From positions 1 through 64,000 of IMG/VR virus record IMGVR_UViG_3300033518_000398: 64,000 nucleotides of DNA. One strand, given 5' to 3'. The position numbers were made by a program, and so were the translations under genes. This DNA comes from a virus. Taxonomy: Duplodnaviria > Caudoviricetes. The notes beneath the pieces are model-generated. The model did no database searches, was not told the DNA's origin, and worked only from the letters and a program-made list of their open reading frames with translations. The stretch's first letter is position 1; every line of letters starts with the position of its first letter. Positions 3,778-63,289 of the stretch are shown piece by piece.

Positions 3778-4896
3778 TTAAATTGCAATTATTGGGAACA
3801 TTGGTGGTTGATACCCACGTTCTTTATTAACATATTCAGCTATTTCGGCACGTTCTTTAACCATATTAGCCTGACTTAATTTAGTTAATTGGTCAATTAT
3901 TAATTTTTCTGTTTCTTCTTTTAATTTAGTACCTTCATCAAGTAAATGACGATAATCCATAGTCAATTGTTTTTCTGCAACACCAAGTTCGCCAGTATAA
4001 AACCCCCTGATTCCACCAATTACCATTTTTACTTTAGCAATCAACAGATTTCTTATTTGTTGATGTGCGACATCATTCAATTTACTCCACTCTAATATCG
4101 ATGTTGGTGGGTCTGATGGTAATTTAATAATGTCACTATTTTCTTCTAAACATTTTTCTCTATTAGTTCCAAGGATATCATAATACCAATACCAAACTTT
4201 TCTTCCTTCATAATGTTTTCCCCATGCATTGGCGATTTCATGACGGTCACCCGGGATTGGATACAAATGTAACATTTTTTCTCCAGTTGCCAAACCAGTT
4301 ATTCTATAAGTTAATGTTGATTGTAAAACTCTTTGTTTCATTCTTCGGTCTTGTGCTGCCAAAAGTGTTGAGAATGTTGGTTGCACATACATAGCTGGAC
4401 GACCGAGATATGACCATCCGACCATACCGGGAGACCATGCATTCAATGCAAACGGGTCAACAATACCACCGTCAATAGATGGTGGAGTTTCCCATAATAC
4501 TTCATTCACTTCTCTTCCTGCAGGTATTATATAATGCTGAGTATGTCCTGATGTTATAATAAAATCACGTTTTAATTCCCAACCTGTTGCCGCTGGGGCA
4601 TTTGTTCCTAAACCCACTTGTCTTGAATATGCATACGTGAAAGTTTCCATGTAATGATTTGATTTATTTGTAAATGCTGCAAGAAAATCACCAGTTTCTT
4701 TACTCATGCCTTCCAATGAAATCCATTGTTGTTGTATCAACCACTGATTAATCAATGATGAATAATCTTCAACAACCATTTCTAAATAAGAATCCATCAT
4801 TTCGTCTATTAATTCGAATGGTCTTAATGGGTATCCTAATTCATGTTTGATGTGAAGATATAATTTATTTTTCTCAACTGTTGTTATTAATGCCAT
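3778..4896 (-). CDS. Putative neck/adaptor protein (T4 gp13-like)
   Basis: N-terminal YLHIKHELGYP..FEL.DEMMD; 372 aa; in the head module with late motif. Confidence 0.6.
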   Translation of the reverse strand: MALITTVEKNKLYLHIKHELGYPLRPFELIDEMMDSYLEMVVEDYSSLINQWLIQQQWISLEGMSKETGDFLAAFTNKSNHYMETFTYAYSRQVGLGTNAPAATGWELKRDFIITSGHTQHYIIPAGREVNEVLWETPPSIDGGIVDPFALNAWSPGMVGWSYLGRPAMYVQPTFSTLLAAQDRRMKQRVLQSTLTYRITGLATGEKMLHLYPIPGDRHEIANAWGKHYEGRKVWYWYYDILGTNREKCLEENSDIIKLPSDPPTSILEWSKLNDVAHQQIRNLLIAKVKMVIGGIRGFYTGELGVAEKQLTMDYRHLLDEGTKLKEETEKLIIDQLTKLSQANMVKERAEIAEYVNKERGYQPPMFPIIAI

Positions 4897-38175: not shown

Positions 38176-38206
38176 TTTGTATTTATGATTTTAATGCATA
38201 TATTTG
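38176..38206 (+). promoter_or_regulatory. Bacteroidota-type promoter for leader 1
   Basis: TTTG 38176-79, 19-nt spacer, TATATTTG 38199-206. Confidence 0.8.
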
Positions 38207-38243
38207 CACTCAGAAGTTTTAATAAATGTTATTTGTAGTTGAA

Positions 38244-38318
38244 ATGAAAAATTTAGTGAACATAGTGCCCCAACCGCAACAACATCCACAGGATGGTGAA
38301 TGGGGAAAGTACGCTTAA
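38244..38318 (+). CDS. Attenuator leader peptide 1 (Pro/Gln/His sensor)
   Basis: MKNLVNIVPQPQQHPQDGEWGKYA*. Confidence 0.8.
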   Translation: MKNLVNIVPQPQQHPQDGEWGKYA

Positions 38319-38348
38319 TTTTTCAATTGAAGTTTTAAGTTAAACATG

Positions 38349-38377
38349 ACCCCATTCTGAAAAGAGTGGGGTTTTTT
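38349..38377 (+). terminator. Attenuator 1 terminator
   Basis: ACCCCATTCT-GAAA-AGAGTGGGGT + T-run; 5' arm complementary to GAATGGGG at 38298-305. Confidence 0.85.
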
Positions 38378-41240: not shown

Positions 41241-41270
41241 TTTGTATTTATGAAAAATTGATTATCTTTG
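41241..41270 (+). promoter_or_regulatory. Bacteroidota-type promoter for leader 2
   Basis: TTTG 41241-44, 18-nt spacer, TATCTTTG 41263-70. Confidence 0.8.
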
Positions 41271-41295
41271 CAGAAGAAATTTAAAATTTAAAACA

Positions 41296-41385
41296 ATGAG
41301 AAATTTACTCGACATATTAATGGTAGCTTTGGAAGCAGTCCTATTATGGGCAGCAGATGAGGATAAAATACGTTCAGTCGGGTAA
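41296..41385 (+). CDS. Attenuator leader peptide 2 (Leu/Asp/Glu/Trp/Met-rich)
   Basis: MRNLLDILMVALEAVLLWAADEDKIRSVG*. Confidence 0.75.
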   Translation: MRNLLDILMVALEAVLLWAADEDKIRSVG

Positions 41386-41416
41386 TACAATATTACACAC
41401 TCCTTTCTTTAATAAG

Positions 41417-41451
41417 AAAAACCCGACTCTCCACAATAAGTCGGGTTTTTT
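41417..41451 (+). terminator. Attenuator 2 terminator
   Basis: AAAAACCCGACT / AGTCGGGTTTTT; 5' arm complementary to AGTCGGGT at 41376-83. Confidence 0.85.
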
Positions 41452-44938: not shown

Positions 44939-45303
44939 GGGGGCGACTTGGATTTGATTAGATGTCAGATTGGTAAAGTAAGCAAGTCTTAGTTGAATCA
45001 GACTAAGTAAAAAAGGTTCAAAGCAGAAATGCAAACAATTTTTCAGAGGACATGATGTCCTTCTCAACTTCTGTAACAAGAGGTATCACCGTTTTCGAGA
45101 GTGCTGAACTCGAAATGGCTGCTTGAGAACAATAAACGGCAAAAACTTCTGGTGAAGTAAGTTATGAATAAGTTAGTAACGAATCCCGAAGCGAAACTAA
45201 TATTAAACTGTTATATTTTGCTGATTTAGAAAAATCGGATAAACTTGTAGAAAACCTATTAATCACATTTAAGACGAGGGTTCGAATCCCTCCGCTTCCA
45301 CCA
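44939..45303 (+). ncRNA. ssrA: tmRNA
   Basis: 5' GGGGGCGACTTGGATTTGA, G3.U70, 3' GGTTCGAATCCCTCCGCTTCCACCA; tag ORF 45031-45126 ending in MAA*. Confidence 0.92.
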
Positions 45304-48488: not shown

Positions 48489-49328
48489 TTAAATTATAAT
48501 TATTTCTTCCCAATTTCCAGCATCATTTTCTGTTTCTGAAATTCCCTTTTCACCACCCAATTGAAATTCTCTTTTATCGATTACCGTGTCTTGAAGAAGT
48601 TGATTAAGTAGTTCATCAGAAAGCGGTGCATATGCTATACCATTGGCATATGACTTGCCCATTCTATATTTAAGTAATTCTCCATTTTTAGATTCGACAG
48701 CAGTTATTTTAACACTACGATATTTTCCACGACTCACAAGATTGTTAAATATTCTATATATATTATGACTATCTCTTTGAAATACAGTTGGTGTAGTCAC
48801 AGATAAAAATTTTTTGTTGTCAATTTCTAAAATAATTGCAATCAATATTTTATTATTTCTTACTGTGTCTGATACACCGAGTTGTTCTTCACTACTCTTC
48901 GTAATTTTATAACCTAAACCCATACCGTTAATTCTATTGGCTTCCCTAAAAAAATTAGAATCATGTGGGTCATAGACGTTATGTTCTCCAGTACTTAATA
49001 ATTTTATATGAATCATTTCGTGTGCCAAAGTGTTTTTAAAAACCATATATGGCATAGCGTAAAAACCTGAAATTGCAAGATATTGTATTTTACTCTCATG
49101 GGTTAATCTATTAATATGTGCACTAACATGACCTAAATTACTTTTTCGATTGCTCCAACGCATTGAAACTCTGGGTAATTGGTTGTTAAATAGTTCACTA
49201 TTTAATTTAGAATATTCATTATATAAATCGATTTTTGACTTATTGATAACATCATTGTCCTGATATTCAATTTCATTTAGAAACCTATCAAGTTCTTCTT
49301 TGACTATGGATTTTAAACTTTGACTCAT
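48489..49328 (-). CDS. SprT-like zinc metallopeptidase-domain protein
   Basis: LNSELFNNQLP, TLAHEMIH, HDSNF; N-terminus IVKEELDRFLNE. Confidence 0.75.
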   Translation of the reverse strand: MSQSLKSIVKEELDRFLNEIEYQDNDVINKSKIDLYNEYSKLNSELFNNQLPRVSMRWSNRKSNLGHVSAHINRLTHESKIQYLAISGFYAMPYMVFKNTLAHEMIHIKLLSTGEHNVYDPHDSNFFREANRINGMGLGYKITKSSEEQLGVSDTVRNNKILIAIILEIDNKKFLSVTTPTVFQRDSHNIYRIFNNLVSRGKYRSVKITAVESKNGELLKYRMGKSYANGIAYAPLSDELLNQLLQDTVIDKREFQLGGEKGISETENDAGNWEEIIII

Positions 49329-49893: not shown

Positions 49894-50604
49894 ATGAGTA
49901 ATCCCGAAGCAAGAAAAAACATTTCAAATAAATTGTTAGGTGAGAAGAATCATTTTTATAATAAAAAACATTCCGAAAATTCTAAAAATAAGATTAGAAA
50001 CAAATGTGTTATTTTGTTTTCAGGCAATAAAAACCCCATGTATGGGAAAACTGTCTACAGCATATGGGTTAAAAAATATGGAATTGATGTTGCCAACGAA
50101 AAATTACTTTCATATAAGAATAAATTATCAAAAAGATTTAGTGGAACAAACAATCCAATGTATGGTAAATTATCTCCACAAGGTTCTGGCAATGGATGGT
50201 CGGGTTGGTATAATGGATGGTTTTTTAGAAGTCTAATGGAATTAACTTATATGATAAAATTTATTGAAAAAAATAATTGGATTTGGGAATCTGGTGAGAC
50301 AGAGAGATATAATATAAAATATTTGGATTATCGAGGTAATGAAAGAACATATCACCCAGATTTTATCATTAATAATAAAATTATGGTTGAAATAAAACCA
50401 ATAAAATTATGGAATTCAGATGGTGTTCAAAGAAAAAAAAATGCTGCAGAGTTATATTGTGTAAAGCACGGAATGATATATGAATTAATTAATATTGATG
50501 AAATTATTGATATTAATGAATTAATTAATAAAAAATTACTTACATTTACAAAAAAATATTCAGAAAAATTTAAATTACTGATTGAAAAACAAAATCAATA
50601 TTAA
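49894..50604 (+). CDS. NUMOD3 + TnsA-like PD-(D/E)xK endonuclease
   Basis: FYNKKHSENSK, NPMYGK repeats, FRSLMEL, YHPDFII, VEIKP. Confidence 0.75.
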   Translation: MSNPEARKNISNKLLGEKNHFYNKKHSENSKNKIRNKCVILFSGNKNPMYGKTVYSIWVKKYGIDVANEKLLSYKNKLSKRFSGTNNPMYGKLSPQGSGNGWSGWYNGWFFRSLMELTYMIKFIEKNNWIWESGETERYNIKYLDYRGNERTYHPDFIINNKIMVEIKPIKLWNSDGVQRKKNAAELYCVKHGMIYELINIDEIIDINELINKKLLTFTKKYSEKFKLLIEKQNQY

Positions 50605-51094: not shown

Positions 51095-52183
51095 ATGGAA
51101 GAAATACTTATTAAAGTTGACTGGAAAGTATTACAAAATTATATTGATAATAATTTAATTATTGCTAATAAACATCCAGAATATAATCTTTGGATACTTA
51201 ATTATAGCTCTAAAACACAATCAAAAAATTTTTGGGATTTATATACAATATCATGTAGAGGATTGATTGTTGATGAAAATGGCGTTGTTGTTGGTAGATG
51301 TATGAGAAAATTTAAGAACTATGAACAGCATGACCCATCAGAAATTGATATGTCGAAGAAATTCGAAATTTTTGAAAAGATGGACGGCTCATTAATTATC
51401 TTATTTTATTATGAACCACGTATGAGGTGGATTGTAGCTTCAAGAGGTTCATTTATCTCAGAACAGTCACTCCATGCTGAGAAGATGATTGATGCAAACG
51501 TGTATAAGTATTTAAACACAAAGTCAACATATTTGTTTGAAGTAATTTATCCTGAAAATCGTATAGTTGTTGATTATGGTGATAGAAATGAACTTGTATT
51601 GCTTGGAAATATAATCACAGCAACTGGTGAAGAATTACCATACGATAAGTTGGTTAGTATATATTCTAAGTTTTTTACTGTTGTCGAAAGGTTTGAAATT
51701 GAAAACATAAACTTTTTAAAGAAATTGAAGGAACTTGAAGAAGATAATAAAGAGGGTTTTGTTGTACGTTTCGAAAATGGTTTCAGAGTAAAAGTTAAGT
51801 TCGAAGAATATATCAGATTACACGGTATTTTAACAAATGTATCAAACTTAACTGTTTGGGAACACTTGAAGAATAACTATAATTTTGATGAACTTCTCGA
51901 CAGAGTTCCAGACGAATTTTATGACTGGTTAATGAGAACAGTAAAAACATTACAGTCAGAATATAATGAAATCGAAAGAGTGGCATTATTAGAATTCGTG
52001 AAAATATATCACATTAATGGAATTACTGACCGTAAAGATTTTGCAACAGAAGTAATAAAAACTGAACATAGTTCAATATTGTTTAAATTGTATGATAAAA
52101 GGTCATATGGTGAAATTATCTGGAAGCAAATCAGACCTGTATACAGCAAGCCATTTAAGGATGGCTTCGAGTATATTGCATAA
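51095..52183 (+). CDS. T4 Rnl1-like RNA ligase
   Basis: ILNYS, CRGLIVD, EKMDGSL (motif I), ASRGSF, FEVIYPENRIVVDY, EGFVV, RVKVK. Confidence 0.88.
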   Translation: MEEILIKVDWKVLQNYIDNNLIIANKHPEYNLWILNYSSKTQSKNFWDLYTISCRGLIVDENGVVVGRCMRKFKNYEQHDPSEIDMSKKFEIFEKMDGSLIILFYYEPRMRWIVASRGSFISEQSLHAEKMIDANVYKYLNTKSTYLFEVIYPENRIVVDYGDRNELVLLGNIITATGEELPYDKLVSIYSKFFTVVERFEIENINFLKKLKELEEDNKEGFVVRFENGFRVKVKFEEYIRLHGILTNVSNLTVWEHLKNNYNFDELLDRVPDEFYDWLMRTVKTLQSEYNEIERVALLEFVKIYHINGITDRKDFATEVIKTEHSSILFKLYDKRSYGEIIWKQIRPVYSKPFKDGFEYIA

Positions 52184-52904: not shown

Positions 52905-53717
52905 ATGAAAAAATGGAAATTATTTAATTGGTTCATAAAACCAAAAAAAGGAGAGGCACGAATCAAGTTTGGTTGGAAAAGAGATTTACCTGACCATAGA
53001 GATTTTAAATTTAAAATAACAATACCAGTTGAATTACCAACTAAAGTAGATATGAGGGATTTATGTCCACAAGTTTATAATCAGGGTCAACTTGGAAGCT
53101 GTACCGCAAATGCATTAGGTGCTGCGTTTCAGTTTGAACAAATGAAACAAAATAAACCAAATTGGATTCCTTCAAGACTTTTCATTTATTATAATGAAAG
53201 AGCAATGGAGGGTAACATTAATGAAGACTCTGGTGCAATGATTCGTACTGGTATTAAGACAATGGTAAAAGATGGTGTTTGTCCTGAAACCATGTGGAAA
53301 TATATTGAACATAAGTTTAAAGTGAAACCAAATTCATTATGTTATGATGAGGCATTAAATAGTCAGATATTGGAATATCAGAGAATCACACCACATACAT
53401 TATACGAAGTGAAATATGCGTTGACTCAAGGTCATCCAGTTGTATTTGGTTTCATGATTTATGAATCCATGATGACTGATGATGTTACCAGAACAGGACA
53501 TGTACCAGTTCCAAGGTCAAATGAAAAACCAATTGGTGGACATGCAGTAATGGCAGTTGGTTATGATGACAGCAAAGAATGTCTTATCGTTCGTAATAGT
53601 TGGGGTACTAATTGGGGTATTAATGGTTATTTTTATTTACCATATTGGTATGTTTCAACACCCAATGCATCAGCCGATTACTGGACAATTAAATTGGTTG
53701 AATCAGAGAATAAATAA
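52905..53717 (+). CDS. Papain-like C1 cysteine peptidase
   Basis: QGQLGSCTAN (catalytic Cys), GGHAVMAVGY (His), VRNSWG (Asn); late motif at 52882. Confidence 0.92.
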   Translation: MKKWKLFNWFIKPKKGEARIKFGWKRDLPDHRDFKFKITIPVELPTKVDMRDLCPQVYNQGQLGSCTANALGAAFQFEQMKQNKPNWIPSRLFIYYNERAMEGNINEDSGAMIRTGIKTMVKDGVCPETMWKYIEHKFKVKPNSLCYDEALNSQILEYQRITPHTLYEVKYALTQGHPVVFGFMIYESMMTDDVTRTGHVPVPRSNEKPIGGHAVMAVGYDDSKECLIVRNSWGTNWGINGYFYLPYWYVSTPNASADYWTIKLVESENK

Positions 53718-53744
53718 AATAGTTTAAAAATAATTACACTTTTA

Positions 53745-53776
53745 TTTGGAAATCTCGTATTTATATCTTTACTTTG
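53745..53776 (+). promoter_or_regulatory. Bacteroidota-type promoter variant for leader 3
   Basis: TTTG 53745-48; imperfect -7 element (TATCTTTA 53764 or TTACTTTG 53769). Confidence 0.55.
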
Positions 53777-53803
53777 TATTCAGAATTTAAATATAAAAAC
53801 GCA

Positions 53804-53893
53804 ATGAGAACATTTGGAACATATTATCTTTATAAATCTTATAAGAAAACTCTTATGAGAATCGGGATTTTTATGTCCAAAACGCAAAGATAA
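53804..53893 (+). CDS. Attenuator leader peptide 3 (Tyr/Lys sensor)
   Basis: MRTFGTYYLYKSYKKTLMRIGIFMSKTQR*. Confidence 0.8.
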   Translation: MRTFGTYYLYKSYKKTLMRIGIFMSKTQR

Positions 53894-53919
53894 GCAATGA
53901 TATTTGTGTATTGAAACAG

Positions 53920-53948
53920 AAACCCGATTCGTAAGATTCGGGTTTTTT
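53920..53948 (+). terminator. Attenuator 3 terminator
   Basis: AAACCCGA / TCGGGTTTTTT; CCCGATTC complementary to GAATCGGG at 53859-66. Confidence 0.85.
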
Positions 53949-53988
53949 GTTATATTATTCTTTGAAGATTTGAAAGCGAAATGAAATT

Positions 53989-54077
53989 GGGAGTACGGCA
54001 ACGATGGTGGTGTTGCGCTAAACTGTAAATTTAGTCCCTTCGGGTAAACATTGGAGGTTCGAATCCTTCTGCTCTCA
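53989..54077 (+). tRNA. tRNA-Tyr(GTA)
   Basis: CTAAA-CT GTA AA-TTTAG; long variable arm. Confidence 0.88.
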
Positions 54078-54082
54078 CAAAT

Positions 54083-54156
54083 TCCCTCGTAGTTTAATTG
54101 GTAAAACCCCATACTTTTAATATGCGAAAGTCCCAGTTCGAGTCTGGGCGAGGGAA
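54083..54156 (+). tRNA. tRNA-Lys(TTT)
   Basis: CATA-CT TTT AA-TATG with a C:C mismatch at the top of the anticodon stem. Confidence 0.85.
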
Positions 54157-54280
54157 CTCTGTGATTTTCGAGTCTTAATCATGTGTTAAATTTATTTAGT
54201 TTATAAAAAAATCCTTGCATTTTTAAATAAAATGTATTATATTTGTTGAAAATAACTTTAAGCTAAAGTAATTTGAAAAA

Positions 54281-55045
54281 ATGGCTAATAAAAAGAAAAA
54301 GGTAACAACTACTATTACAACAACAGTTACGGAGGAAATTGTAAATATTCCTTCAAACGAAAAAACTCACATCATCTGTATTTTAGACCAAAGTGGTTCG
54401 ATGGCAAGTATTATGTCGGACAGTATTGGTGGTTTTAATGCATTCTTAAAAAAACAAAAAGAATTACCTGATGACGCAACAATTACTGTTGCATTATTTG
54501 ATGATAAATATAAACTGCTTTATGATAATGTTGATATTAAAAAAGCGGAAGAACTTACAAGTACTGTTTGGTATCCACAGGGAATGACAGCACTTTATGA
54601 TGCAATTGGTAAAACAATTAATGTCGAAAAACGAAATTTTGAAAAACTTGGCAATGAAGCACCTGCAAAGGTATTGTGTGTTATTGTAACAGATGGAGAA
54701 GAAAATAGTAGTAAAGAATATAAACTTGAAGATATCAAGAAACTTATTAAGAAATGTGAAAAGGATGACTGGAACTTCATGTATTTAGCTGCTAATCAAG
54801 ATGCTTTTGCTGTTGGAACAAGTTTTGGTGTAAGTGCTGGAAATACATATTCATATACAGCAACTGCTGATGGTGTATTTAATATGTCCAACACACTAAA
54901 TAATGCGAGTGTAAGCTATAGGTCAATGAACACTACATCTGCAGATTTCAAGGAAAAGTCGAAATCATTGGTTGATGATGTTGATGATAAACTTGATGAA
55001 AATGGTATTATAACCACAAGTAATTCATTTACTGTTTCTAACTAA
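54281..55045 (+). CDS. von Willebrand factor A domain protein
   Basis: MIDAS ILDQSGSM, TALYDAIG, IVTDGEEN; promoter TATATTTG at 54238. Confidence 0.9.
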   Translation: MANKKKKVTTTITTTVTEEIVNIPSNEKTHIICILDQSGSMASIMSDSIGGFNAFLKKQKELPDDATITVALFDDKYKLLYDNVDIKKAEELTSTVWYPQGMTALYDAIGKTINVEKRNFEKLGNEAPAKVLCVIVTDGEENSSKEYKLEDIKKLIKKCEKDDWNFMYLAANQDAFAVGTSFGVSAGNTYSYTATADGVFNMSNTLNNASVSYRSMNTTSADFKEKSKSLVDDVDDKLDENGIITTSNSFTVSN

Positions 55046-57666: not shown

Positions 57667-60600
57667 ATGGCACAAAAAACCCTAAAAACCTACACAAAAC
57701 AAGAAGTTGAAAAAGCAACATTAAACTATTTTAAAGGAGATGGATTAGCTACCGATGTATGGATGAAAAAATATTGTTTAAAGGATGAAAACAATTATTA
57801 CGAACTCACTCCTGATGATATGCATAAAAGAATTGCAAGTGAACTTGCAAGAATAGAAGCTAAATATCCAAACCCACTTACCGAAGAACAAATTTTTGAA
57901 ACATTGAAAAATTTTAAGAGAATTGTACCACAAGGAAGTCCGATGTCAGGAATTGGAAATAATTTTCAGGTAGTATCTATTGGTAATTGTTTTGTTATTG
58001 GAAATTATGGTGATGGTGATTCTTATGGTGGAATATTGAATATCGACCAAGAACAGGTTCAATTAATGAAACGCAGGGGTGGCGTTGGACATGATTTATC
58101 ACATATTCGTCCAGCAGGTAGTCCAGTAAAAAATAGTGCAATTAGTAGTACAGGTATCGTACCCTTTATGGAAAGATATTCAAACAGTACCAGAGAGGTT
58201 GCACAAGACGGTAGACGTGGAGCACTTATGCTCAGTGTGTCGATTAAACATCCAGATTCTGAAGCATTTATTGATGCCAAACTTGAATCTGGTAAGGTAA
58301 CAGGTGCTAATGTTTCAGTTAAAATCACCGATGAATTCATGAAAGCAGTAATGAATAATAATATGTTTCAACAGCAATATCCAATAGATAGTGATAACCC
58401 TAAATATGTTAAAAGCATTGACGCTCAAAAACTTTGGAAGAAAATTGTATATAATGCATGGAAATCAGCCGAACCCGGTATCTTGTTTTGGGATAAAATA
58501 ATTGGTGAATCAATACCTTCTTGTTATGGTAAGGAATGGATTGAAAGAAGTACTAATCCATGTGTTAGTGAAGATACATTAGTATTAACACATCATGGTT
58601 ATTATGAAATTAGTGAGTTAGTAGATAAGCCAACATTTGTTTGGAATGGTATGAATTTCTCCGAAGTTACGCCAACAATTACTGGTTATAATCAGAAAAT
58701 GTTAAAAGTTATCTTTAGTGATGGTTCTGAATTGAAATGTACACCATATCATGGATTTTATACTTGGGAAGGTTTTGAACGTGATGGAAAATCAATAAAA
58801 AAGGAAGCTAAAGATTTAATCGTTGGAGATAAACTCGAAAAACATGAATTTCCAACACTTTTTGACCATCAAGTTTTTCATGTCGATAAAACTTTTTATA
58901 CGTTAGGATTTTTTGCTGGTGATGGTTTTGTGAAAAGAGATAGCACAGCACATGTATCGTTATATGGTGCAAAGAAAAATCTTCTTGATAAATTAGATGT
59001 AATTGGTAATGTTTCTGAAGATATTGAAAATGATAAATTAACAATACGTGTTGACTTACCTGTAGATTATTTTGGAATTGATTTACATGAACTAAAAAAA
59101 TATGTTCCTAAACGTCATGATAATAATTCATCGGCAATGATGTCATGGTTGGCAGGTATTATAGATTCTGATGGATGTCGTAATTCAGAAGAAGGTTCAA
59201 TTTCAATATCATCAATAGATAAACAATTCTTAATGGATATTAAGTTACATCTTTTGAACGTAATGGGTGTCAGTGGTAGTGTAATTGATGAAAAAGAAGG
59301 TGGGTTACATGAAATTAAAGGCGTTAAATATGATTGTAATAAATCATATCGTTTAATAATTAGTGCATATAATGTTAAAAAACTTTATGATTTAGGTTTA
59401 CGTACCTATCGTGTTAAAATCGATGATGTTAATCCGAACCGTGATGCAAGTAGATTCATTACTGTGAAATCGATTGAGGAAATAGAAGATGCTGAAAAGG
59501 TTTATTGTTTTACTGAACCAGAAAGAGGTCGTGGATGTTTCAACGGTATTGTTACTGCGAATTGTGGCGAGTTACCACTCCCGCCATATGATAGCTGTAG
59601 ATTACTTGCAATTAATTTATTTGGTTATGTGAGAAATCCGTTTACCAAAGAAGCATATTTTGATATGGAAAGTTTTAAGGGCGATGTGATTATATCTATG
59701 CGATATATGGATGATATTATCGATTTAGAACTCGAAAAAATCGATAAAATATTAGAAAAAATCGAATCTGACCCAGAACCTGAAAATTTAAAAAGTGTAG
59801 AAAAAGAATTGTGGAATAATATTAGAAGAAAAGCTGAGTTAGGTCGTAGAACTGGACTTGGTGTTACAGGTGAAGGTGATATGATTGCTGCAATGGGACT
59901 ACGTTACGGTACTGATGATGCCACCGAATTTAGTGAAGAAGTTCATAAAACATTGAAATTAGAAGCATATCGCTCAAGTGTTATTATGGCTAAAGAACGT
60001 GGTGCATTTCCGATATACGATTGGGATAGAGAAAAATTCAATCCATTTATTCGTAGAATAATGGATGAGGATACTGAATTATATAATGAAATGGTAACTT
60101 TTGGTCGTAGAAACATTGCATTACTTACAATCGCACCGACTGGAACAGTTAGTATTATGACACAAACTACATCTGGAATTGAACCAGCATTCTTACCAGT
60201 ATATATGCGTAGGCGTAAGATTAATCCGCAGGAAAAGGACGTTCGAATTGATTTTATTGATGAAGAAGGTGTTGCTTGGATGGAATATCCAGTATTTCAC
60301 CATAAATTTGAAATGTGGTTAGGAATCAATGGCTACGATGTTGAAGTGGTGAAAACCATGAATAAGGAACAACTGGATGAAATTGTTAAAAAATCCCCAT
60401 TTTATAAAGCAACTTCCAATGACGTTGATTGGGTAAAAAAGGTTGAAATGCAAGGCAGGGTTCAAAGGCATGTTGACCATTCCATAAGCACAACTGTGAA
60501 CGTCCCTAATGATACAACAGAGGAACTTGTTGGTAAAGTATATGAAACGGGTTGGCGTAGTGGTTGTAAGGGTATTACTATTTATCGTGATGGTAGTCGT

Positions 60601-61236
60601 AGTGGTGTGTTGGTTAGTCAAAAAGAAGAAAAGAAAGTAGAAGAACTCCAAGACGTGCATGCACCAAAACGTCCCAAAAGATTAAAAGGTGAAATACATA
60701 GGTTTCAGAACAATCTGGAAAAATGGATAGCTGTTGTTGGTATGAAAGATGGTAGACCATATGAAATCTTTACTGGTGTTAATGCTAATGGTCTTAGTAA
60801 TTTACCAACAAACGTTAAAGACTGTGAAGTCGTTAAAAATATTATCGAAGTCGAAGTTCTTGATGATAACGATAAACCAATTAAAATAAAGAAAAAAAGA
60901 TATGATATTGAATATGTTGATGTTGATGGCATTAAACAAGTACACACTGGTTTAAATCATGCATTCAATCCAGAGTTCTGGAACTATGCCAAGTTAATCT
61001 CTGGTATAATGAGACATGGTATGCCAGTTCTTAAACAATACGAATTAATTGAGTCATTGAATTTTAAAGAAGACTATATTAATACGTGGAAAAATGGTGT
61101 GGCACGTGTAATTAAAAAATATATTAAGGATGGTGTTAAAAGCAAAGGAACGTGTCCTGAATGCGGTGGTACTGATTTTATTTTTCAAGAAGGATGTGTT
61201 AAATGTAGTAGTTGTTCTTGGACGAAATGTGGATAA
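57667..61236 (+). CDS. nrdJ: Class II (B12-dependent) ribonucleotide reductase with intein
   Basis: RRGGVG, RRGALM, AEPGILF, TNP/CGE, TIAPTGT, GITIYRDGSR, C-terminal CPECG..GC..C..C; promoter TATATTTG at 57626. Confidence 0.92.
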   Translation: MAQKTLKTYTKQEVEKATLNYFKGDGLATDVWMKKYCLKDENNYYELTPDDMHKRIASELARIEAKYPNPLTEEQIFETLKNFKRIVPQGSPMSGIGNNFQVVSIGNCFVIGNYGDGDSYGGILNIDQEQVQLMKRRGGVGHDLSHIRPAGSPVKNSAISSTGIVPFMERYSNSTREVAQDGRRGALMLSVSIKHPDSEAFIDAKLESGKVTGANVSVKITDEFMKAVMNNNMFQQQYPIDSDNPKYVKSIDAQKLWKKIVYNAWKSAEPGILFWDKIIGESIPSCYGKEWIERSTNPCVSEDTLVLTHHGYYEISELVDKPTFVWNGMNFSEVTPTITGYNQKMLKVIFSDGSELKCTPYHGFYTWEGFERDGKSIKKEAKDLIVGDKLEKHEFPTLFDHQVFHVDKTFYTLGFFAGDGFVKRDSTAHVSLYGAKKNLLDKLDVIGNVSEDIENDKLTIRVDLPVDYFGIDLHELKKYVPKRHDNNSSAMMSWLAGIIDSDGCRNSEEGSISISSIDKQFLMDIKLHLLNVMGVSGSVIDEKEGGLHEIKGVKYDCNKSYRLIISAYNVKKLYDLGLRTYRVKIDDVNPNRDASRFITVKSIEEIEDAEKVYCFTEPERGRGCFNGIVTANCGELPLPPYDSCRLLAINLFGYVRNPFTKEAYFDMESFKGDVIISMRYMDDIIDLELEKIDKILEKIESDPEPENLKSVEKELWNNIRRKAELGRRTGLGVTGEGDMIAAMGLRYGTDDATEFSEEVHKTLKLEAYRSSVIMAKERGAFPIYDWDREKFNPFIRRIMDEDTELYNEMVTFGRRNIALLTIAPTGTVSIMTQTTSGIEPAFLPVYMRRRKINPQEKDVRIDFIDEEGVAWMEYPVFHHKFEMWLGINGYDVEVVKTMNKEQLDEIVKKSPFYKATSNDVDWVKKVEMQGRVQRHVDHSISTTVNVPNDTTEELVGKVYETGWRSGCKGITIYRDGSRSGVLVSQKEEKKVEELQDVHAPKRPKRLKGEIHRFQNNLEKWIAVVGMKDGRPYEIFTGVNANGLSNLPTNVKDCEVVKNIIEVEVLDDNDKPIKIKKKRYDIEYVDVDGIKQVHTGLNHAFNPEFWNYAKLISGIMRHGMPVLKQYELIESLNFKEDYINTWKNGVARVIKKYIKDGVKSKGTCPECGGTDFIFQEGCVKCSSCSWTKCG
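58561..59562 (+). mobile_element. Intein (334 aa) with LAGLIDADG endonuclease in NrdJ
   Basis: CVSEDTL... to ...IVTAN then Cys+1; LGFFAGDG and LAGIIDSDG motifs. Confidence 0.92.
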
Positions 61237-61782: not shown

Positions 61783-61813
61783 TTTGGAATTATCAAAACT
61801 TTATTTACCTTTG
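61783..61813 (+). promoter_or_regulatory. Bacteroidota-type promoter for leader 4
   Basis: TTTG 61783-86, 19-nt spacer, TACCTTTG 61806-13. Confidence 0.8.
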
Positions 61814-61865
61814 CAAAGTATTTAGATGAAAGAGATTTCAAATTTAATCAAAACATATTAAAATA

Positions 61866-61994
61866 ATGAAAGCACAGGTATCCAATATTAATATTTCGTC
61901 AACGATTAATAGTCGTAATGGAAATGGTATATTCTGTTCAAGTTTTACAGGCAGAAATATAGCAGATACGGGTTCTGGTTTTCATGAGTCATAA
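61866..61994 (+). CDS. Attenuator leader peptide 4 (Ser/Asn/Ile/Gly/Cys sensor)
   Basis: MKAQVSNINISSTINSRNGNGIFCSSFTGRNIADTGSGFHES*. Confidence 0.8.
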   Translation: MKAQVSNINISSTINSRNGNGIFCSSFTGRNIADTGSGFHES

Positions 61995-62018
61995 ATAACT
62001 CATAAAAATATTAAAAAG

Positions 62019-62048
62019 AACCCGAATTCACAAGATTCGGGTTTTTTT
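62019..62048 (+). terminator. Attenuator 4 terminator
   Basis: AACCCGAA / TTCGGGTT + T-run; AGAACCCG complementary to CGGGTTCT at 61969-76. Confidence 0.85.
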
Positions 62049-62062
62049 GTTCTTTGAAATAT

Positions 62063-62746
62063 TTATAATAAAATTTTGGTGCGGATGATTTCATCGATAA
62101 TTGTGAAATATGTGTATGCCCTATCTATTTTAAAATTAATGAATTTTGATGTGTCTATAATACATAACTCAATTCCCTGTTCTAAACAGGCTTGAAATTT
62201 ACGGTTATCGTTATTTTGAATCTGGTTTAGTTTATCTTCACCATAAATTGGTTCATAATGAAAAACACCATTAAGTTCGAATGCAAGTTTAAGTTCTGGA
62301 ATATAAATATCAAGTTCAGAATTTATAGTAGTTTTATCATTGAAGAAAAAGTCAATGTTTGGATATTTTTTTATTAATTCAATGGCAATCCATTTTTCAA
62401 GTTTTGAAATTCGAGTACCTTTAGTCTTGTGTGTGTTATTATATGTAATAGAACAAGACCTTGAGCAGAAATTTTTTGTGGATTTAGAATTTTTTATTTC
62501 ATAATTCGTTTTAATAATTTCTTTTCCGCAATTACCACACATCACTATGTGTCTTTTAGTTAAAATTTGATATTGATGTGAACAATTTTGTGAACAAAAT
62601 TTTGCCGAATTTCTTTTACAATTAATTGCATACATAATTTGTCTTTTTGTTGTATGAAAAGGGTTACCACAAAATTCGCATTTACATTCAAATAAATCTG
62701 TTACTTTTCCAGATATTAATTTTTCATTTTCAAATAATGGTATCAT
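62063..62746 (-). CDS. Zn-finger + Vsr/DUF559-like endonuclease
   Basis: CEFC, CSQNC, CGNC, CSRSC; ELDIYIPELKLAFELNGVFHY; late motif at 62761. Confidence 0.7.
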   Translation of the reverse strand: MIPLFENEKLISGKVTDLFECKCEFCGNPFHTTKRQIMYAINCKRNSAKFCSQNCSHQYQILTKRHIVMCGNCGKEIIKTNYEIKNSKSTKNFCSRSCSITYNNTHKTKGTRISKLEKWIAIELIKKYPNIDFFFNDKTTINSELDIYIPELKLAFELNGVFHYEPIYGEDKLNQIQNNDNRKFQACLEQGIELCIIDTSKFINFKIDRAYTYFTIIDEIIRTKILL

Positions 62747-63200: not shown

Positions 63201-63289
63201 GAATGATTAGAATTTCGTAGCATAGTGGTAATGCTGCCCGCAAGAAAGGGTGAAGATTGGTTCGAGTCCAATCAAAATTTTAATCATTC
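63201..63289 (+). ncRNA. tRNA-like RNA with a 15-bp acceptor helix and non-canonical anticodon loop
   Basis: GAATGATTAGAATTT/AAATTTTAATCATTC; D-arm GCAT/ATGC; T-arm GATTGG-TTCGAGT-CCAATC. Confidence 0.55.

Follow-up and report, generated by a model that had tools for sequence, protein, structure and literature searches.

A probable leader-peptide attenuator upstream of the tRNA-Tyr and tRNA-Lys genes of an AT-rich phage, with sister cassettes upstream of its other tRNA blocks

How does a phage decide when to make its own tRNAs? The question is raised by a 64-kb stretch of phage DNA (hereafter the window; positions 1 to 64,000 of the 78.8-kb IMG/VR virus record IMGVR_UViG_3300033518_000398, Duplodnaviria; Caudoviricetes, judged 23% complete), in which a short open reading frame (ORF) rich in tyrosine and lysine codons, followed by a terminator hairpin, stands directly upstream of a tRNA-Tyr and a tRNA-Lys gene. 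The window is AT-rich (about 31% GC) and contains 20 tRNA genes and one tmRNA according to ARAGORN. To our knowledge, the control of expression of phage tRNA genes has hardly been described. Even what these genes are for has been a matter of dispute for some 50 years, the proposals being codon compensation, host tRNA decay and counter-defence (PMC10264068). Comparison with related phages leads us to propose that the Lys/Tyr element is probably a ribosome-mediated leader-peptide transcription attenuator controlling the tRNA-Tyr/tRNA-Lys operon, and the best reading of its design is that it would supply negative feedback on charged tRNA-Tyr and tRNA-Lys.

The leader ORF has 29 codons, from ATG to TAA, on the plus strand (53804-53893). 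Its codons 7-15 (53822-53848, plus strand; TAT TAT CTT TAT AAA TCT TAT AAG AAA) encode the peptide Y Y L Y K S Y K K, so that seven of nine consecutive codons are Tyr or Lys, as the initial annotation of this locus had noticed. In dinucleotide shuffles of the 220 nt upstream of the tRNAs, at least seven Tyr/Lys codons in nine were reached in 20 of 20,000 cases, and in only 4 of 20,000 when the run was required to lie inside an ATG-started ORF. Two tRNA genes follow on the same strand: tRNA-Tyr (GTA), which has a long variable arm (53989-54078; ARAGORN, and 37.2 bits with Rfam RF00005), and tRNA-Lys (TTT) (54083-54157; ARAGORN, Rfam 56.5 bits). No other tRNA lies between the leader and the next protein gene, which starts at 54281 and has its own TATATTTG box, and the annotated pairing of the run with these two tRNAs alone is thus correct.

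Upstream of the ORF, direct reading identifies a promoter-like region of the Bacteroidota type (53745-53776, plus strand), the pattern of which is TTTG, about 20 nt, then TAnnTTTG. It consists of a TTTG (53745-48), a 20-nt spacer containing a conserved CGTATTTAT box (53756-64), and TTACTTTG (53769-76), and would place the transcription start about 20 nt upstream of the leader ATG (near 53780), leaving an A-rich 5' untranslated region without a Shine-Dalgarno sequence. Relatives keep this layout in front of their leaders, mostly with the canonical TAnnTTTG; the Lys/Tyr cassette of the window is a one-base variant of the strict pattern. Across the window as a whole the strict pattern is not enriched (8 matches versus 5.8 expected). 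A scan with a sigma-70 promoter and a simple terminator was uninformative, since the promoter is of another type and the terminator carries an internal mismatch.

The transcript is predicted to form the alternative structures expected of an attenuator. An extended 1:2 "protector" hairpin, P1 (53813-53881, plus strand; -19.3 kcal/mol), has an inner stem formed by 53837-46 with 53851-60. The hairpin had been recognized in the initial annotation, with its first arm placed one base off: TCTTATAAG lies at 53837-45 and not at 53838-46. The Tyr/Lys codons lie on the 5' strand of P1, and the 3' strand ties up the antiterminator strand GAATCGGG (53859-53866, plus strand; codons Arg19-Ile20-Gly21), which is the perfect complement of CCCGATTC (53923-30) in the 5' arm of the terminator; the 8-bp antiterminator helix proposed earlier is thus exact. 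The terminator itself, a stem-loop followed by T6 (53918-53948, plus strand; -14.8 kcal/mol), begins two bases before the 53920 first given. Between regions 2 and 3, folding and the relatives point to a further hairpin, P2 (53882-53909, plus strand), with the leader stop codon (53891-93) in its loop; P2 belongs to a long antiterminator conformer (53859-53934, -21.9 kcal/mol) that also includes the 2:3 helix and extra pairs. The region folds with a z-score of -4.7 relative to shuffles, and a complement to the terminator arm, under our own permissive criteria, was present in 5.9% of shuffled upstream regions.

Compared as separate conformers without region 4, these energies suggest that the free RNA prefers P1 plus the terminator, and that, once region 1 is masked, the antiterminator is favoured over the terminator. 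This ordering runs through the 34 sequences of the family (medians: P1 -18.2, antiterminator -19.1, terminator -14.3 kcal/mol), the antiterminator being more stable than the terminator in 28 of 34 and P1 plus terminator more stable than the antiterminator in all 34. With an assumed ribosome footprint, direct reading of the coordinates indicates that region 1 would be covered when the A site is on any of codons 7-15, and that the ribosome would extend no further than about 53859, where the antiterminator strand starts, leaving that strand free.

A conserved AAGYAATGA motif lies directly downstream of the leader stop, in the P2 loop (53891-53902), in many Lys/Tyr cassettes, and includes an ATG that opens a mini-ORF of 3-5 codons.

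Is this arrangement kept by selection? We retrieved relatives with the downstream 254-aa protein as bait (34 loci) and by two pattern scans of IMG/VR, one for the terminator and one for the leader codons. More than 40 contigs of related huge phages, up to 385 kb long, have kept the Lys/Tyr unit, and 34 distinct homologous leaders from them were aligned (alignment A2). Every Y/K leader for which downstream sequence is available precedes Lys/Tyr tRNAs, and no case was found of the run being kept with different tRNAs. Nearly all bait loci that extend far enough upstream have a tRNA cluster of Lys and Tyr only, behind a homologous leader and terminator. The terminator pattern returned just two leader classes, Tyr/Lys leaders followed by Tyr/Lys tRNAs, and leaders rich in Ser, Thr, Asn, Ile, Gly, Cys and Phe followed by exactly those tRNAs. 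Matches to the leader-codon pattern in short ORFs were all followed by a terminator and Lys/Tyr tRNAs; those inside long ORFs had neither behind them.

The pairings are conserved as pairings. In the antiterminator helix, pairing holds in 98.9% of cells over the 34 sequences, and it is exactly this helix that an unguided RNAalifold consensus returns. In L025 the change is compensatory (GAACCGGG with CCCGGTTC), the helix of L004 is a different one in which complementarity is kept, and L065 and L090 show G-U pairs. P1 also covaries: at pair 31:99, 18 sequences have GC and 10 have AU, and at pair 63:73 the counts are 24 and 7, respectively. None of 500 shuffles reached the observed covariation score. 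A hairpin at the position of P2 occurs in nearly all relatives and is built from differing sequences. In several relatives the first tRNA begins 8-11 nt past the U tract, which leaves no space for a separate promoter and implies that those tRNAs are made only by terminator read-through.

This last point bears on a first alternative, in which the locus is a structured constitutive element, with hairpins and terminator that end an upstream transcript or guide tRNA-precursor processing, an untranslated ORF, and Tyr/Lys codons that are a by-product of AT-rich sequence. TAT and AAA are indeed favoured by AT-rich DNA, the six frames of the window contain six runs of at least seven Tyr/Lys in nine codons, and the S-Y-K-K part of the run lies within the inner hairpin and is thus constrained by RNA structure alone. 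However, the run is reached by only 0.1% of the shuffles, and a strong constitutive terminator 8-11 nt before promoterless tRNA genes would silence them.

The coding frame gives a further test of this alternative. In a codon table of the 34 relatives anchored on the Y-K-K motif, the ATG, the stop codon and the frame of the leader are kept in 34 of 34 distinct members and indels in the run come in multiples of three. Elsewhere in the ORF indels are also multiples of three, except for a 1-nt deletion 3' of the run in L044 and L051, which shifts the downstream frame and leaves the Tyr/Lys run in frame with the ATG. Six positions of the run are 91-100% Tyr/Lys, at one of its positions 24 sequences have Lys and 8 have Tyr, and the position adjoining this alternating codon accepts ten different residues. 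The Lys/Tyr interchange occurs at an unpaired position and requires two or three base changes, a cost that a purely structural element does not explain. With four paralogous cassettes that differ in leader composition, each matching its own tRNAs (see below), we consider a constitutive element improbable.

The same table argues against a second alternative, that the ORF encodes a functional small protein and that the terminator merely ends its gene. The leader peptide is conserved in length and partly in sequence, but the conserved residues that follow the run (R-I-G and M-S-K) coincide with base-paired RNA; the R-I-G segment, which corresponds to the antiterminator RNA, is read in another frame in L044 and L051. 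Moreover, leader composition follows the downstream tRNAs in all four cassette classes, and we regard a functional peptide as extremely improbable. The codon pattern fits what is expected of regulatory codons, rather than of a functional peptide or a pure RNA element.

Is the Lys/Tyr cassette a special case? We compared the window genome (G000) with five relatives and scanned all hairpin-plus-T-run terminators in the six genomes without using any information on leaders. The same four cassettes were found in each genome. The last terminator before a tRNA block has a 7-12-nt upstream complement within a short ORF in 24 of 24 cases; such a complement together with a leader ORF accompanies 3 of the 42 other terminators, with a shuffle rate of 5.9%. 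The partition of the tRNA blocks is identical in the six genomes (Pro/His/Gln; Asp/Glu/Val/Leu/Ala/Trp/Met; Lys/Tyr; Thr/Cys/Asn/Ile/Ser/Phe/Gly/Arg, numbered here as classes 1 to 4), and the four blocks together span all 20 amino acids. Leader composition tracks the leader's own tRNA class (chi-square p = 1e-11 in the window genome and 1e-12 to 1e-17 in the relatives), and the roughly one dozen distinct pairs of antiterminator and terminator arm found over the four classes in these genomes are all complementary.

In the window, the three sister cassettes each comprise a promoter, a leader ORF, an antiterminator and a terminator, and each sits 5' of the matching tRNA block. They lie at 38176-38377 (leader rich in Pro/Gln/His), 41241-41451 (leader rich in Leu/Val/Ala/Asp/Glu/Trp/Met) and 61783-62048 (leader rich in Ser/Asn/Ile/Gly/Cys/Thr/Phe/Arg). 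All three fit the strict Bacteroidota promoter pattern, and the class-4 terminator (62021-62048) is nearly identical to that of the Lys/Tyr cassette. The occurrence of one design on every tRNA operon points to a general control of tRNA supply rather than to a counter-defence specific for Lys and Tyr. Altogether, conservation, covariation, codon constraint and the match of four cassettes to their own tRNAs give strong comparative support to the attenuator first proposed for this locus.

Some blocks depart from the common layout. The class-2 block of the window genome has lost its Glu, Val and Ala tRNAs, and its leader retains those codons. The gap between the class-4 terminator and tRNA-Cys is 846 nt in the window versus 14-44 nt in relatives, and contains an ORF on the minus strand (62063-62746) encoding a Cys-rich protein of 227 aa with a zf-FCS zinc finger, which is probably a mobile insertion. 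Within the class-4 block ARAGORN also predicts a tRNA with a four-base anticodon (AAGA; 63210-63281, plus strand).

How might the Lys/Tyr switch work? We infer that the leader is translated, that ribosomes stall in it and that read-through is conditional, as follows. Transcription would begin at the host-type promoter near 53780, and the 29-codon leader would be translated at once. When charged tRNA-Tyr and tRNA-Lys are both plentiful, the ribosome would pass codons 7-15 and reach the stop codon at 53891. P1 would then re-form behind it, or the ribosome would occupy the space between regions 2 and 3; sitting on the stop codon (53891-93) in the P2 loop, it should hinder closure of the 2:3 helix. 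The terminator (53918-48) would form and RNA polymerase would halt 41 nt 5' of tRNA-Tyr. When either tRNA is scarce, whether because the host pool is mismatched to an AT-rich phage, through decay of host tRNAs or through cleavage by an anticodon nuclease, the ribosome would stall in 53822-48, masking the 5' strand of P1 and freeing GAATCGGG (53859-66) to pair with CCCGATTC (53923-30) before the 3' arm of the terminator is made. The polymerase would then read into both tRNA genes, and the tRNAs produced would relieve the stall.

Several points weigh against this interpretation. It takes for granted that transcription and translation are coupled in the host. Because 25 nt separate the antiterminator strand from the leader stop downstream of it, the "off" state needs either re-folding of P1 or steric blocking; in this state the ribosome is not on region 2, unlike in trp. 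The 41-nt gap between the terminator and tRNA-Tyr leaves room for a weak internal promoter. Equilibrium folds of the full RNA, region 4 included, mostly keep the terminator when a ribosome footprint is masked (the antiterminator appears in one of seven stall positions), which means that the switch has to operate kinetically, in the manner of classical attenuators. Enrichment of Tyr/Lys over the whole leader is modest (8 of 28, p = 0.03), the signal sitting in the run. Finally, most family members were found via patterns derived from the element, which limits the number of independent covariation events that can be counted for the 2:3 helix.

The predicted stall zone also raises the question of specificity. 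A third alternative is a general sensor of translation status, in which read-through would follow any slowing or absence of ribosomes, for example upon antibiotic treatment or global shutdown. Any stall within about 53830-53850 would release region 2, and induction of tRNA arrays by impaired translation has a precedent in the Anabaena trn array (PMC8421152, PMC10272220). Such a sensor, however, needs neither a stall zone with selectively Tyr/Lys codons nor the cognate codon sets of the other three cassettes. In addition, P1 plus the terminator is favoured when there is no translation, which predicts termination rather than induction. On balance we think it improbable, if a little less so than a constitutive element, and retain ribosome stalling at Tyr and Lys codons as the probable signal.

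Could the signal nevertheless be an attack by the host? T4 Rnl1 repairs tRNA-Lys cut by the anticodon nuclease PrrC, and a T4 Rnl1-type RNA ligase (51095-52183, plus strand; Pfam PF09511, E = 1.3e-18) is encoded 1.6 kb 5' of the Lys/Tyr cassette in the window. A homologue lies 1.5-2 kb 5' of the cassette in two of the three complete relatives (G003 and G005) and was not found in the third (G004). No polynucleotide kinase/phosphatase (PF13671, PF08645) was found in the 23%-complete fragment, and the complete relatives were not searched for it. According to the initial annotation, this locus would be the cleanest candidate for an inducible anti-defence tRNA module. Under the corresponding alternative, the main role of the attenuator would be to switch on substitute tRNA-Lys and tRNA-Tyr upon attack by a host anticodon nuclease (PrrC-like, PARIS AriB or retron PtuAB), in concert with the Rnl1-type ligase.

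There is circumstantial support for an anti-defence role of the Lys/Tyr unit. Phages can be saved from retron-Eco7 PtuAB and PrrC by their own tRNA-Tyr and tRNA-Lys, for which the level of expression matters (PMC11555353). Lys and Tyr alone share a small private operon in every genome examined, and the ligase gene accompanies it in G000, G003 and G005. Two reports further describe a short-ORF attenuator that answers ribosome stalls at regulatory codons, in the mycobacterial poly-Cys sORFs (10.1101/834739), and, separately, Cys-codon stalling caused by VapC4 cleavage of tRNA-Cys (PMC13096801). Against this, the four tRNA operons covering all 20 amino acids share one design, and nothing mechanistic singles out Lys and Tyr; G004 has no ligase, and the kinase was missing from the incomplete window record. 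The tRNA-Lys itself gives no sign of evasion. The C:C mismatch noted at the top of the tRNA-Lys anticodon stem is real (C27:C43 by direct reading), but within the six genomes it occurs in two orthologues only, the window copy and that of G003, and is no family feature. The anticodon loop has the canonical sequence CUUUUAA in all phage tRNA-Lys(UUU) copies examined in these genomes, with none of the deviations typical of phage tRNAs that evade anticodon nucleases. These comparisons do not establish the special status claimed for this module, and we find it rather unlikely that counter-defence is its dedicated function. It is conceivable, though we put it forward only tentatively, that the four attenuators form a self-regulating decoding-supply system that partitions the 20 amino acids, each unit gauging the speed at which its own codons are decoded and topping up the matching tRNAs; in this system the Lys/Tyr unit with the Rnl1-type ligase would be an arm against host anticodon nucleases aimed at tRNA-Lys and tRNA-Tyr.

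The comparison with described counter-defence tRNAs cuts both ways. The T5/SP15 tRNA-Tyr that acts against retron-Eco7 PtuAB and the tRNA-Lys that acts against PrrC (PMC11555353, PMC10264068) have the same two identities as the tRNAs here, and the amount of tRNA was shown to matter there. In contrast, those tRNAs rely on a strong constitutive promoter or on mutations in the anticodon loop, and no sensing leader has been described for them; the loops here are canonical, and a link to defence would be hypothetical.

Two further observations concern the tRNAs behind the leaders. The relative use of AAG and AAA in the leader bears no consistent relation to the presence of tRNA-Lys(CUU). A conserved spacer of about 300 nt separates the terminator from the first ARAGORN-called tRNA in L003 (4165-4472), L012, L013, L019, L022, L043, L048 and L049; in L003 it contains a tRNA missed by ARAGORN (4368-4452, Rfam 39 bits), which is possibly atypical or insert-bearing.

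How new is this arrangement? Leader-peptide attenuators are known from trpL, hisL, leuL and pheL, from the multivalent thrL and ilvL, and from the pheST synthetase operon in Proteobacteria. Like the attenuators of amino-acid operons, the Lys/Tyr element has a promoter-proximal mini-ORF with regulatory codons overlapped by a 1:2 hairpin, and mutually exclusive 2:3 antiterminator and 3:4 terminator helices, such that a stall at hungry codons would lead to read-through; the sister cassettes are multivalent, as are the thr and ilv leaders. It differs in that the genes under control are those for the tRNAs reading the regulatory codons, rather than biosynthetic or synthetase genes, and the loop thus closes on decoding capacity itself. 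It differs further in being phage-encoded, with a Bacteroidota-type promoter and no Shine-Dalgarno sequence, in the position of the leader stop, which lies 3' of region 2 and within an additional hairpin loop (P2), and in the division of all 20 amino acids among four units. The Lys/Tyr leader matches no Rfam leader family at or above the gathering threshold of that family; the sub-threshold matches to Thr_leader, which are driven by the terminator, score 16.9 bits here and 30 bits in L003, versus a gathering threshold of 55.

T-box riboswitches likewise antiterminate according to the state of a specific tRNA. However, their specifier codon and T-box motif make direct contact with uncharged tRNA, and they control synthetase or amino-acid genes. 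The element described here has a conserved leader ORF instead, and within 53700-54300 the T-box covariance model gave no match at E <= 10.

The nearest published case is the trn operon of Anabaena sp. PCC 7120, a long tRNA array that is induced under translational stress (PMC8421152) and repressed by TrcR (PMC10272220). As appears to be the case here, an accessory tRNA array is kept off until translation is impaired, and both settings involve an RNA-repair ligase, rtcB in the Anabaena response and the Rnl1-type ligase near the cassette in the window. The Anabaena array is nonetheless controlled at its promoter, by a ribbon-helix-helix repressor that acts on direct repeats, and the words attenuator, leader and terminator do not occur in the paper; the response is global rather than codon-specific, and cellular rather than phage-encoded. 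Full-text literature searches returned no report of leader-peptide attenuation acting on tRNA genes.

If the proposed mechanism is correct, the phage would gauge decoding speed codon by codon and make tRNAs on demand, in what would be the first classical attenuation to close directly on the decoding apparatus. Read-through of a single terminator would offer a simple readout to separate supply and demand from nuclease-triggered induction. As a compact natural device that senses how much tRNA is available, the element would also lend itself to use as a part in synthetic biology.

As to the phages that carry these cassettes, the complete relatives are huge phages of 327-363 kb with 42-65 tRNAs each. 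A blastn search against deposited phages gave only tRNA-level and short gene matches, and no annotated relative. The sole contig returned by a scan of genome contigs was G005 (JBAZIW010000001.1, 362763 bp), a GTDB contig titled as a Candidatus Paceibacterota metagenome-assembled genome (MAG), which bears the Lys/Tyr leader L116; in all likelihood this is a phage genome wrongly binned as a bacterial MAG, and it offers no clue to the host. In G003, the class-4 tRNA block (merged, reversed coordinates from about 27134 onward; L108-L110) ends in a tRNA with a CTA anticodon, a reader of TAG, which may be a sign that some members of the phage group recode a stop codon.

The tRNA blocks of the window are interspersed with other genes. 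A NUMOD3/endonuclease-type homing-endonuclease ORF (49894-50604, plus strand) and a gene for an SprT-like protein (48489-49328, minus strand) lie among them; mobile endonucleases seem to have fragmented the tRNA arrays of the window genome. The large subunit of ribonucleotide reductase (57667-61236, plus strand) contains an intein with a LAGLIDADG homing-endonuclease domain. The phage-encoded tmRNA (44939-45303, plus strand; Rfam 97 bits) lies within the class-2 tRNA region.

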